A stretch of 64,000 nucleotides of DNA from an uncultured Candidatus Binatia bacterium (GTDB lineage Bacteria > Desulfobacterota > Binatia > HRBIN30), in NCBI GenBank assembly GCA_964524885.1, contig CAZGEJ010000016.1, positions 28,629-92,628 of the forward strand, given 5' to 3'. The notes below the pieces were generated by a model. That model made no database searches, was not told the origin of the DNA, and worked only from the letters and a program-made list of their open reading frames with translations. Positions 12,217-24,467 of the stretch are shown here, one piece after another. How positions within the stretch are numbered: position 1 is the stretch's first letter; every line of letters begins with the position of its first letter. The translations under genes were made by a program, and so were the position numbers.

Positions 12217-12307
12217 GTGCGGCACCGGCGCCAAGTCGTTGAAAAACAAAGTGCCGGGGACGGGGGTCGAACCCGTATGGGCGAATGCCCGAGGGATTTT
12301 AAGTCCC
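12217..12307. repeat. att direct repeat, distal copy (3' part of tRNA-Leu plus 35 bp downstream)
   Basis: 91 bp identical to 24345-24435. Confidence 0.95.
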
Positions 12308-12419
12308 CTGGAGATGAGCCGAAATCGGACTGAAAACGACGGAAATGGACGCTGGGTGCGGGTTTCCGCGATTCCCGTATAGCTCCCGGAGTCCAAATCA
12401 ATCCAGCCCCGTCGCCCCA

Positions 12420-12442
12420 AATTGCGGAAGAATTGCGGAAGT
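12420..12442. promoter_or_regulatory. Putative integrase arm-type site, (AATTGCGGAAG)x2
   Basis: 23 bp identical to 24296-24318; a degenerate inverted copy is at 12363-12374. Confidence 0.7.
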
Positions 12443-12653
12443 TACAACTTGTGATCCGAGGGCAGCCGCTTCGCCACGCACGCCCCCCGAGTCGTCACCT
12501 CGACGGCGCTCCATGCGCCCTCCCCTCCCAGCCCTCCCCCGCGGGCGTGGCCAGCAGCCGTTGCTTCGCGGACGGTGTAGAATGGTGACTTGGGGGGCCG
12601 GGAAAGAACGCGGGACCCGGGCCGCGACAAGAGAATAGGAGTGGAAGTCCAAT

Positions 12654-22800: not shown

Positions 22801-23032
22801 GGAAGTGAAGAAGGTTGCCAGGGATCTACTGGCGCGCCTCAAACAACTGCTGGTGCTCAACTGGCGGCAGAAGTCGGCCGCCCGTTCATCGCTGAAGTTG
22901 ACGATCGAGGACACGCTCGACAGCGGCCTGCCCCCCTCCTTCACGCCGGAACTCTATCGCCAGAAATGCTCGGCGCTCTTCGAGCACGTCTATGAGAGCT
23001 ACCCCGAACGAAACGCGGGCGTGTACGGGTAA
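19847..23032 (+). CDS. hsdR: Type I restriction endonuclease subunit R
   Basis: PDLVGFVNGLPWVVIELK nuclease motif, QGSGKS Walker A, DEAH and FTGTP. Confidence 0.96.
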   Translation: MSPHAYTEDQLVEQPAIGLFAGLGWEVVSALDEIFGAGSTLGRETKGEVVLVDRLRAALSRLNPGLPAEAIQIAIDDLARDRSAMSLEAANREVYRLLKEGIPVSIPDREHGGQKTERLRVVDWENPEQNDFLLVSQFSVVGSLYTCRPDLVGFVNGLPWVVIELKKPGVPARAAFDENLTHYKQQIPQLFWFNALLIASNGTDSRVGSLTADWERFFESKRVEREDEPRRVSMEVMLRGTCDRHRLLDLVENFTLFSEHKAGLVKILGQNHQYLGVNNAIASMLEARKLGHGRGGVFWQTQGSGKSFSMVFFAQKILRKLSGNWTFVVVTDRVELDEQIAKTFKTVGAVSEAEGDQCHAASGAHLRELLRGNHRYVFTLVHKFQTPEMLTDRSDVIVLTDEAHRSQYDTLAVNMRAALPKAVFLAFTGTPLIAGEERTREVFGDYVSIYDFQQSVEDGATVPLFYENRTPELQLVNPDLNDDIYRLIEDADLDAEQEEKLEKVLGRQYHLITRDDRLETVAQDVVRHFLGRGFVGKAMVVSIDKATALRMHDKVKKHWAAETERVRTELQALAQRPSGGMTREQARRDLLMAEMNQRLEVLTSTDMAVIVSPGQNEIEQMRQLGLDIEPHRRRMNESQPPLDERFKDTDDPLRLVFVCAMWLTGFDAPSCSTVYLDKPMRNHTLMQTIARANRVFPGKHSGVIVDYANVFASLEKALAIYGAGTGGTNPVQDKAQLVVALREAVAVATSFCAAHGVDLAAMEGLPLGGMERLEAIENAIDALIAPEALRREFFGHEKFVDTLYRAVKPDPAAIEFAGRVAGIDALADAIRAKLNPNPPDITQVLGQITGLLDESITGLTIRDDGPPAIDLSKINFEALAQRFKESKHKNTDLEALKAAIQAKLAKLVQLNRTRTDFAEKFEALIESYNNGSRNIEQLFEELLKFSNSLDDEQQRHVREHLSEEELVIFDILTRPAPALSTDEREEVKKVARDLLARLKQLLVLNWRQKSAARSSLKLTIEDTLDSGLPPSFTPELYRQKCSALFEHVYESYPERNAGVYG

Positions 23033-23249
23033 CCTGCCCGGGATCAGCTGGGATTCTTTCCCGCTGGGAGAGCTGCCTGCAGCGCTACAACGACGTGCGT
23101 CCGACCATGAAGCCACCGCCGTCGCACCGGCGGAGACGCGCCCCGTTCCGCGCTACCGGGGGGCTTGCGGGGACTCCCGGCCGGACGTTATACGCCGCCC
23201 CTCGAACGACCGTGCCGACCGAACGTTGCGAACTTGAGCGAGAGATCCG

Positions 23250-24467
23250 ATGAGCCATGGCCGGCAGAAACGCCCGAATGGTGAGGGGTCGCTGCGGCGG
23301 CGGGGCCGTCGCTACTTTGCCCTCGTCTCGTTCCCCGGTCGCGGACGACGCGAGGTGGCTCTCGGGACGGAATCGCGGCCGGAAGCGGTGGCGGCGCTGC
23401 GGCGCCTCGTGGCGCAGATCGAGGACGGCGACCCTACCCTCTTCTCTCCGCCGCTGACGGTAGCGGACGCCTACCAGCGGCTGGTTCAGGACTACAAGAT
23501 CCGCGGGCGCCGCACGTCGCCCGCCAAGCGCTGGGCACACCTGGAGCCGGTGTTCGGTGCGACGCGCGTGCAAAACGTCACGTCCGCCATGGTCGCAGAC
23601 TACGTCGAGGGCCGGTTGTCGGCCGGGGCGGCGCCAGCGACCGTGGCCCGCGAGATCGCCGCCCTGCGGCGCGCACTGCGGCTGCTGCGCGACGACGGCG
23701 TCCGGTTCCCCGTGTTCCCGCGCTTCCCCACCATCACCGAGAACAACGTCCGGCCCGAATTCTTCTCTCCCGAGCAGTACGAGCGACTGCGCGAGGAACT
23801 GCCCGCCCACCTGCGCCCGATGCTCACCCTGGGGTACTGGCTCGGCTGGCGGCGCAGCGAAATCCTGTCGCTGCAGTGGCGCCACGTCGACCTCGACGCC
23901 GGCACCGTTCGGCTGGACGCCGGCACCACCAAGAACCTCGACGGGCGCTACGTCCACCTGCCGGCGCCGGCCCTCGCCGAGCTGCGGGCGTGGCGGGAGG
24001 AGACCGCGGCGATCGAGCGGCGGCTCGGCATCATCATCCAGGCGGTCATCCACCGGCACGGGCGACCGGTGCGCGACCATTACGGCGCCTGGCGCGCGGC
24101 ATGCGAGCGGGCGGGGGTACCGGGGCGCTGGTTCCACGACCTCCGCCGGTCGGCGGTCCGCAACTACGTCCGCGCCGGGGTGTCGGAGAAGATCGCCATG
24201 GGGGTCACCGGGCACCGGACGCGGGCGGTTTTCGAACGCTACAACATCGTCACAGACGGAGACCTACGCACGGCGGCGGCACGCGTTTCGGTCGGAATTG
24301 CGGAAGAATTGCGGAAGTCGCCCCCTCCGAGGGTCCGGTGGGGGGTGCGGCACCGGCGCCAAGTCGTTGAAAAACAAAGTGCCGGGGACGGGGGTCGAAC
24401 CCGTATGGGCGAATGCCCGAGGGATTTTAAGTCCCTTGTGTCTGCCGATTTCACCACCCCGGCGTGA
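23250..24467 (+). CDS. int: Tyrosine recombinase/phage integrase; ORF extends across att and the tRNA antisense
   Basis: GWRRSEI (R), TKN (K), FHDLRR (HxxR), TGHRT and ERY (catalytic Y); N-terminal NGEGSLRRRG arm-binding-like segment. Confidence 0.95.
   Translation: MSHGRQKRPNGEGSLRRRGRRYFALVSFPGRGRREVALGTESRPEAVAALRRLVAQIEDGDPTLFSPPLTVADAYQRLVQDYKIRGRRTSPAKRWAHLEPVFGATRVQNVTSAMVADYVEGRLSAGAAPATVAREIAALRRALRLLRDDGVRFPVFPRFPTITENNVRPEFFSPEQYERLREELPAHLRPMLTLGYWLGWRRSEILSLQWRHVDLDAGTVRLDAGTTKNLDGRYVHLPAPALAELRAWREETAAIERRLGIIIQAVIHRHGRPVRDHYGAWRAACERAGVPGRWFHDLRRSAVRNYVRAGVSEKIAMGVTGHRTRAVFERYNIVTDGDLRTAAARVSVGIAEELRKSPPPRVRWGVRHRRQVVEKQSAGDGGRTRMGECPRDFKSLVSADFTTPA
24296..24318. promoter_or_regulatory. 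Putative integrase arm-type site, (AATTGCGGAAG)x2
   Basis: Identical to 12420-12442 and 26 bp from the att repeat. Confidence 0.7.
24345..24435. repeat. att direct repeat, tRNA-proximal copy; includes the IHF-like site TTTCAACGACTTG (minus strand)
   Basis: Identical to 12217-12307; the IHF consensus WATCAANNNNTTR is matched with 1 mismatch. Confidence 0.93.
24380..24463 (-). tRNA. tRNA-Leu (anticodon TAA)
   Basis: GCCGGGG/CCCCGGC acceptor stem, anticodon arm GGGA-CTTAAAA-TCCC, long variable arm, GGTTCGAC T-loop; CCA not encoded. Confidence 0.97.

Follow-up and report, generated by a model that had tools for sequence, protein, structure and literature searches.

The 64-kb window considered here (the whole stretch of DNA that was analysed, ~66% GC, part of contig C16 in a draft genome of 5.99 Mb in 80 contigs from an uncultured Candidatus Binatia bacterium) contains a 12,222-bp island at a tRNA-Leu(taa) gene, and this island, 12217–24438, is the subject of our analysis. 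From left to right it consists of a displaced fragment of the tRNA gene, a truncated replication initiator gene (rep) with an iteron array behind it, 1.8 kb of non-coding DNA, a toxin–antitoxin (TA) pair, a Type I restriction–modification (R-M) operon and a tyrosine integrase gene (int) that adjoins the intact tRNA gene. An earlier note on the same DNA had proposed a minimal self-replicating defence island; the att sites, integrase, iterons, TA pair and Type I R-M genes that it listed are present at or near the positions it gave, and of the bounds it set (12217–24435) the left one is exact while the right one lies 3 nt short of the true end at 24438.

The island is bounded by a 94-nt direct repeat with an identity of 93/94, which occurs in just two copies in the whole 5.99-Mb genome. 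The left copy, attL (12217–12310, minus strand), is a displaced copy of tRNA-Leu nt 26–85 together with 34 nt of downstream sequence, and the attR core (24345–24438, minus strand) overlaps the intact tRNA-Leu(taa) gene (24379–24463, minus strand), which is matched by Rfam, and extends 34 nt downstream of it. An intact tRNA gene with its displaced fragment as a direct repeat at the far end, adjoined by a tyrosine integrase that has its catalytic residues, is what the Islander scheme defines as a tDNA island. The lone mismatch between the repeats (12307 C versus 24435 T) is at nt 29 of the tRNA, close to where the repeat ends on its inner side, and could simply be a difference between attP and attB on one side of the crossover. 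The identity of the two copies also reaches 34 nt past the 3′ end of the tRNA (12217–12250 and 24345–24378), a T-rich stretch included, which one would not usually expect of a phage attP; repeated cycling in the lineage or an older att remnant might account for it. Rfam found the tRNA alone on the island, besides a meaningless sub-threshold miRNA match on the palindromic iterons.

The integrase gene (23250–24467, plus strand; PF00589; phrog_1, E 1e-48) is a 405-aa open reading frame (ORF) in which all residues that are invariant in a comparison with 120 homologues are present (R201, K228, H296, R299, H322 and Y331). The homologues are 345–370 aa long and span ~84% of the ORF, whose conserved part ends near 24290. 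The last ~55 codons overlap with the arm sites and the att core and continue antisense to the tRNA, with a flat GC content across codon positions, and we read this tail as probably incidental read-through; its alternative role as a functional C-terminus that depends on the integration state was judged unlikely, the tail being non-homologous and non-coding-like in composition. Two exact tandem pairs of the repeat AATTGCGGAAG lie near the ends of the island, one on the rep side of att (12420–12441, plus strand) and one on the int side (24296–24317, plus strand). The window holds no exact copies beyond these two pairs, none of 100 shuffles matched the count, and we take the pairs as good candidate arm-type sites for the integrase. 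Pfam on all long ORFs and six-frame Pfam scans of 12311–12653 and 23033–23249 detected no excisionase, and an 81-aa ORF upstream of int (22992–23237) was rejected as a candidate, as it matches no family and its GC content is flat across codon positions. The integrase matches no sequence in the PDB. Its nearest relative in a collection of 5.8 billion proteins is 53% identical, relatives at 48–52% identity are found in contigs with terminase and portal genes, and its homologues in the same bacterial order all abut tRNA genes but lack rep, TA or R-M homologues beside them.

At the other end of the island the replication initiator is present as a fragment. The gene (12654–13076, plus strand) encodes 140 aa and matches phrog_9474 (‘replication initiation protein’) with an E-value of 1.9e-17 over profile positions 9–100 of 288. 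An exhaustive HMMER search with the 140-aa protein gave 6971 homologue representatives; among the matches listed nearly all are 270–400 aa long, the query aligns to their residues 1–134 only, and the closest (68–72% identity) are 328, 340 and 373 aa. The phage homologues that we examined are 274–296 aa, and rep ORFs at related genome loci (75 ORFs from 80 loci) have a median of 291 aa with a single one of ≤140 aa. The AlphaFold (AF2) model of the 140-aa protein has a predicted local distance difference test (pLDDT) score of 94, and its structural matches in BFVD are the N-terminal parts of 278–349-aa phage proteins and a ‘replisome organizer’ (E 6e-9 to 4e-3). Since profile, homologue lengths and structure all match in part only, the window encodes just the origin-binding N-terminal domain. 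A phage-type initiator is present, as had been claimed, but it amounts to the N-terminal half of a normal one. Foldseek against the PDB gave non-significant winged-helix resemblances only (best E 0.05), and neither a Pfam family nor a PDB sequence matched; the family of ~7000 representatives at 50% clustering has no Pfam model. A plausible AGGAG precedes the start codon. The ORF ends at a TAA (13074–13076) ahead of the iterons, and many homologues align across this stop into the first iterons.

Behind the stop codon the former middle of rep can still be followed (13077–13527, plus strand) as an iteron-coded segment, a Pro-rich linker and ~95 codons open in the +1 frame. The iteron array (13106–13222, no strand assigned) comprises seven CGTGCGCnnnn units, five of them exact palindromic GTGCGCAC, at a spacing of 21/21/11/21/11/21 nt. 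The five exact copies lie within 93 bp, and the whole window holds 11 copies versus 3.2 expected. A (CCCCA)5 tract and then an A-rich patch (TAAAGAAAAAGAGTCTAA) follow at 13245–13290 (no strand assigned) and form a possible unwinding region. In the closest relative, locus L009, six copies of GTGCGCAC with 11/21-nt spacing lie inside the rep ORF and are followed by (CCCCG)4, and a (CCCCG/T)4 tract occupies the corresponding place in the relatives L009, L010 and L011. In the homologous proteins P0004 and P0006 the iterons are translated in three frames, as CAQ, RAH and VRT, ahead of a Pro-rich linker. As in these two proteins, the +1 frame of the window reads CAQ..CAR..RAH..VRT..RIPTPPHPTPP; it stays open to 13527 with a GC content of 0.74/0.59/0.72 at the three codon positions, which is weakly coding-like. 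Removing one C from the C5 run at 13060–13064 would restore a frame of 290 aa. As an observation on the family at large, palindromic intragenic iterons that are translated in three frames are always followed by (CCCCN)4–5 encoding a Pro-rich linker (13106–13290 here; L009:2848–2960; L011:3229–3340).

A C-terminal Rep domain or a DnaB helicase was sought in any frame of 13.1–15.4 kb by tblastn with 150 family members and with the genes beside the three closest rep genes, which returned low-complexity noise only. In the related contig L010 (37.6 kb, encoding the homologue P0005) rep is followed by genes for a DnaB-type helicase, the small and large terminase, a portal, a Mu-F-like protein, a prohead protease and an HK97 capsid, and in L011, the contig of P0006, rep is likewise followed by DnaB; none of these genes, the helicase, small terminase (terS), large terminase (terL) and portal genes included, left a tblastn trace in the island. 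Absences in the island were called with Pfam, PHROGs, PADLOC and tblastn, and by Pfam, PHROGs and tblastn no helicase, loader or primase is detectable. The description of the island as self-replicating is not supported by this state of its replication genes: an initiator of 140 aa versus a median of 291, a stop that precedes the iterons, and no detectable C-terminal domain, helicase, loader or primase.

Much of the DNA that separates the origin from the cargo has no coding signal. In the non-coding stretch 13528–15364 (1.8 kb, ~70% GC, no strand assigned), presumed to be decayed genes, all ORFs have equal GC contents of ~0.7 at the three codon positions, as against 0.66/0.42/0.89 in real genes of this DNA. 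The cargo had been called purely defence and addiction, a claim that fails on these ~1.8 kb of debris. The stretch contains the pseudogene fragment of a second FitA-like antitoxin (14831–15023, plus strand, 193 nt), a C-terminal half with in-frame stops that is 77% identical in DNA to 15489–15681 and matches antitoxin residues 43–99 at 63% by tblastn. Regarding the origin of the stretch, this fragment is the sole traceable part. Six-frame Pfam and PHROGs scans of all gaps in the island found no family, and blastn of 12311–16100 gave no match in phages, while in plasmids the TA pair alone was matched. Relaxase, coupling protein (T4CP), type IV secretion system (T4SS), capsid and terminase families are absent by Pfam from all long ORFs and from the six-frame translation of every gap, and neither the ORFs nor the six-frame translations of 12311–12653, 13230–15370 and 23033–23249 contain a helix-turn-helix (HTH), AlpA or MerR family. 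The island is a discrete phage-type insertion at a tRNA gene; as the earlier note had it, genes for an excisionase, a relaxase, a T4SS, a capsid and a terminase are lacking, here by Pfam on ORFs and six-frame gaps.

The TA, R-M and PDC-S11 genes, all on the plus strand, make up 7.7 kb (63%) of the island. The TA pair consists of a FitA/VapB-type ribbon-helix-helix antitoxin gene (15365–15670, likely start 15413; PF22513, E 4.6e-20) and a VapC/FitB PIN-domain toxin gene (15667–16083; PF01850, E 1.9e-12) that overlaps it by 4 nt, and a ribbon-helix-helix antitoxin gene overlapping a downstream PIN toxin gene is the arrangement of VapBC/FitAB type II TA systems. NCBIfam VapC models match the toxin below their cut-offs, and at ~70% DNA identity the pair resembles ‘plasmid stabilization protein’/VapC pairs on alphaproteobacterial plasmids. 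Downstream lie the genes for the Type I R-M methyltransferase HsdM (16127–17746; PF02384, PF12161; PADLOC MTase_I, E 2e-236), the specificity subunit HsdS with two target-recognition domains (17743–18900; two matches to PF01420; PADLOC Specificity_I, E 7e-56) and the restriction subunit HsdR (19847–23032; PF04313, PF18766, PF11867; PADLOC REase_I, E 4e-172). Embedded in this operon is the gene for a DUF4268 protein, the PDC-S11 candidate defence gene (18897–19850; PF14088, E 1.2e-30; PDLC04911, E 1.1e-120, full length). With intact HsdM, HsdS and HsdR in one operon of ORFs that overlap by 4 nt, the island carries a Type I R-M system that is predicted to be active. The third-position GC content of hsdS is 0.70 (58% GC in the 18–19 kb bin) versus 0.89–0.90 for hsdM and hsdR, which is consistent with an exchange of specificity domains.

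The suggestion that related int–rep pairs be sought was borne out: at five of the related rep loci a small element is bounded by repeats and has its integrase at a tRNA gene, so that small int–rep elements exist as a type. The five lie in Tunturiibacter gelidiferens X5P2 (NZ_JACHEB010000008.1; L079:8233–18283, tRNA-Leu, 32-nt repeat, ~10 kb) and in metagenome-assembled genomes of a member of the Planctomycetia (L102:47–11412, tRNA-Arg, 21-nt repeat, 11.3 kb), the Pirellulaceae (L080:7168–16980, tRNA-Cys, 45-nt repeat, 9.8 kb), the Pirellulales (L105:6766–13365, tRNA-Ser, 30-nt repeat, 6.6 kb) and the Bryobacteraceae (L097:8956–17400, tRNA-Met, 41-nt repeat, 8.4 kb). The rep ORF has 242–302 aa in four of the five and 184 aa in L105. 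The T. gelidiferens element encodes int, an HTH_17 protein, a 290-aa rep, ParB_N-DUF5131, an HK97 capsid, an S78 prohead protease and an HNH protein, with no portal, terminase or tail gene seen in it, and looks like a capsid-forming satellite, similar to phage-inducible chromosomal islands that form capsids (cfPICIs), in a cultured acidobacterium. The Planctomycetia element L102 encodes an HTH_17 protein, a 302-aa rep, a minor-tail-like protein and an S49 protease, and in both elements the HTH_17 gene lies upstream of rep. Unlike these two, the island in the window has no full-length rep, no HTH_17 gene and no capsid-related genes. L080 and L105 carry for the most part genes of unknown function.

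In none of 30 relatives is there a DNA match to the left flank of the island (pyruvyl transferase, GT2 glycosyltransferase), and homologues of the iron-containing alcohol dehydrogenase encoded on the right (24520–25677, minus strand) are ≤39% identical in the 25 other genomes of the bacterial family, so that the neighbourhood itself may be accessory. The sole genome of the same genus (83% complete) has no homologue of the integrase. Further right, a 1135-aa ORF at 25875–29282 has a weak match to the middle domain of hydrazine synthase alpha (PF18582, E 1.4e-6).

We consider it probable, with moderate confidence, that the island is a decayed phage or satellite backbone that has been kept as a chromosomal defence island and can possibly still be excised. 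In such a model a temperate phage, or else a phage satellite belonging to the same gene pool, would have integrated at tRNA-Leu(taa) by tyrosine-integrase recombination and been reduced to its backbone. The presence of the integrase's 48–52%-identity relatives in terminase and portal contigs suggests a phage ancestry for it, and we count this in favour of the model, as we do the lack of a sibling rep or int copy and of PF05065, PF03237 and PF04860 genes in the host genome. What would survive of the backbone is the integration module (the integrase, the 94-nt core and the paired arm sites), accompanied by ~7.7 kb of cargo. The replication module would be defective, its initiator stopping before the iterons, its C-terminal domain no longer recognisable and its helicase gene lost, and the origin would presumably have lost its function; where early genes would have lain, there is now the 1.8-kb non-coding stretch, which includes a broken antitoxin copy. 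At present the island would serve for chromosomal defence and addiction, with the R-M system predicted to restrict incoming DNA and with VapBC and R-M, if active, penalising loss of the island. Excision by the integrase might still occur, though inefficiently for want of a directionality factor, and the excised circle would be unable to replicate on its own. Decay is favoured over a streamlined design by the antitoxin pseudogene and by the 1.8-kb stretch that lacks a coding signal. That this decay is not ancient is suggested by att repeats that match almost perfectly, an N-terminal domain without damage and a frame broken by a single base.

Several of our observations weigh against decay. The ORF for the N-terminal domain of the initiator is undamaged, and the origin (iterons, CCCCN tract and A-rich patch) is as well kept as in functional relatives. 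Since one C fewer would restore the frame, the break is either recent, an assembly error, or bypassed. The C-terminal domains of the family are highly variable, which makes the failure to recognise one here weak evidence of its absence. There is no sign of long residence, the att repeats differing by one base at a place where attP and attB may simply have differed. Finally, repeat-bounded int–rep elements of 6.6–11 kb in other phyla imply that a small element of this sort can represent a genuine way of life and need not be debris.

As an alternative, and in line with the self-replicating island of the earlier note, the island could be an active minimal integrative replicon, in which the break of rep is a sequencing artefact or is bypassed by slippage at the C5 run, a ~290-aa protein binds the iterons and recruits the host DnaB directly, and the excised circle replicates. 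The 290-aa ORF obtained with one C fewer has iteron-coded and Pro-rich segments that align with P0004–P0006, its +1 tail is weakly coding-like, the architecture of the origin is fully conserved, and both the integrase and the att sites are intact. Phage-borne helicases are not universal either, a DnaB homologue being near rep in only ~16 of the 80 related loci by tblastn. However, the frame is broken as assembled, and when it is restored its last ~95 aa have no homologue among the 150 family members or the 80 loci and the conserved Trp-containing C-terminal block of the family alignment is missing. There is also no excisionase or AlpA-type gene, although in related small elements such a gene lies directly upstream of rep, and the adjoining 1.8 kb are debris. 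We regard an active replicon as unlikely.

A second possibility, to which we give a similarly low probability, is a helper-dependent satellite or mobilisable island that excises and is then replicated and packaged or transferred by an incoming phage of the same rep/ori type, whose full-length initiator fires the iterons. The GTGCGCAC core is identical in the related phage contigs L009 and L011, so that action in trans by the Rep of a related phage is plausible, and repeat-bounded int–rep elements with capsid genes occur in Acidobacteriota and Planctomycetota. At 12.2 kb the island falls in the size range of satellites, for which medians of 9.5 kb (phage-inducible chromosomal islands, PICIs) and 10 kb (P4-like) are given, and the same survey describes satellites as carriers of defence systems (PMC10085698). 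Against this, the island has at most two of the five PICI core components, with no regulator, terS, capsid-morphogenesis gene or primase, and neither a cos or pac site nor a packaging gene was identified. Of the three families searched in the host genome, PF05065 (capsid), PF03237 (terminase) and PF04860 (portal), none is present, and the genome holds no second rep or int copy of the island type; nor was a sibling element found, the best integrase in the 5.8 billion proteins being the one at 53%.

A more specific version of the same idea strikes us as slightly more doubtful still, namely that the island is the defence-carrying member of an undescribed int–rep satellite family of Acidobacteriota, Planctomycetota and related phyla that includes the T. 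gelidiferens element, that it is still mobile because a helper with GTGCGCAC fires its origin in trans, and that the free N-terminal domain interferes with the replication of this helper. If mobility through the initiator of a helper were true, the island would represent a very simple satellite design. That the truncated initiator and iterons are kept as a defence or regulatory device in their own right, the free domain occupying the iterons of invaders or the island's iterons titrating their Rep, is in our view highly improbable, for the intact 140-aa ORF with its confident fold (pLDDT 94) and plausible AGGAG, an iteron core common to related phages and an island that is otherwise all defence are set against a truncated form that has no evidence of selection, no match to a PADLOC model and a length shared by one of 75 relatives (and hence is not a recurrent design), and a recent frameshift explains it equally well.

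Taken as a decayed, phage-derived backbone, the island is an ordinary case of a phage-derived tRNA-gene island in which the integrase has been retained and defence genes have been gained or retained. Its value is that of an annotated example from a poorly sampled lineage, in which no relative shares it. Two side results may reach further: a widespread unnamed initiator family (~7000 representatives) whose intragenic iterons are read in all three frames, and small repeat-bounded int–rep elements with capsid genes in phyla other than the Proteobacteria and Firmicutes, phyla in which few satellites are known.

The truncated gene can be compared with initiators of the lambda O/ori and SPP1 G38P ‘replisome organizer’ types, in which the iterons lie within the segment of the initiator gene that codes for a linker and are followed by an A/T-rich patch. 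The island shares with them the replisome-organiser N-terminal, origin-binding domain, and related phages share the intragenic iterons and the helicase gene after rep. It differs in that its gene is interrupted before the iterons, where in these systems the reading frame continues without a break through the iterons up to a C-terminal domain for partner binding, and in having neither a recognisable C-terminal domain nor a helicase or loader gene.

For the integrase the closest parallel is the myxophage Mx8, in which, as Tojo et al. reportedly described in 1996, the int frame crosses attP and the predicted C-terminus differs between the integrated and the excised state. The island int frame likewise crosses att and would have a state-dependent C-terminus. 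Unlike in Mx8, only a non-conserved tail of ~55 aa with a non-coding-like composition is affected, and as the catalytic Tyr331 lies upstream of this tail a functional consequence is doubtful. Islander itself allows an integrase ORF to cross att, citing Mx8 and SSV (PMC4383910).

Among mobile elements at large, the island shows none of the structural, packaging and lysis modules or the immunity region of an intact temperate prophage, and none of the relaxase, coupling protein and T4SS Pfam families of an integrative conjugative or mobilisable element in its ORFs or gaps. It resembles PICIs, cfPICIs and P4-like satellites in its size of ~10–12 kb, terminal integrase, iteron origin, accessory defence genes and lack of tail and lysis genes. 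The core components of a PICI are an integrase, a regulator, a primase-replicase, capsid morphogenesis and terS (PMC10085698); in the island the integrase is clear, the initiator is at best half of a second component, and a regulation module (alpA, merR, stl), a primase-replicase, capsid morphogenesis genes and a small terminase are not found. Of the capsid, protease, portal, terL and head–tail adaptor genes that a cfPICI has of its own the island contains none, and in contrast to PICIs and P4-like satellites it has no AlpA/MerR/Stl, primase-replicase, terS, capsid-morphogenesis or psu/delta/sid gene, which places it below the three-component ‘Type C’ tier of SatelliteFinder. That tier is treated as unreliable by its own authors (PMC10085698). 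Because the count of PICI components falls below it, we file the island as a tRNA-integrated, phage-derived defence island. It is most like the tRNA islands and cryptic prophage remnants found by Islander (PMC4383910), with which it shares a regenerated tRNA gene and displaced 3′ fragment, an adjacent tyrosine integrase and non-phage cargo, and it stands apart from typical islands of this kind by a 94-nt identity block that reaches 34 nt past the tRNA and by having kept a recognisable origin and half an initiator.

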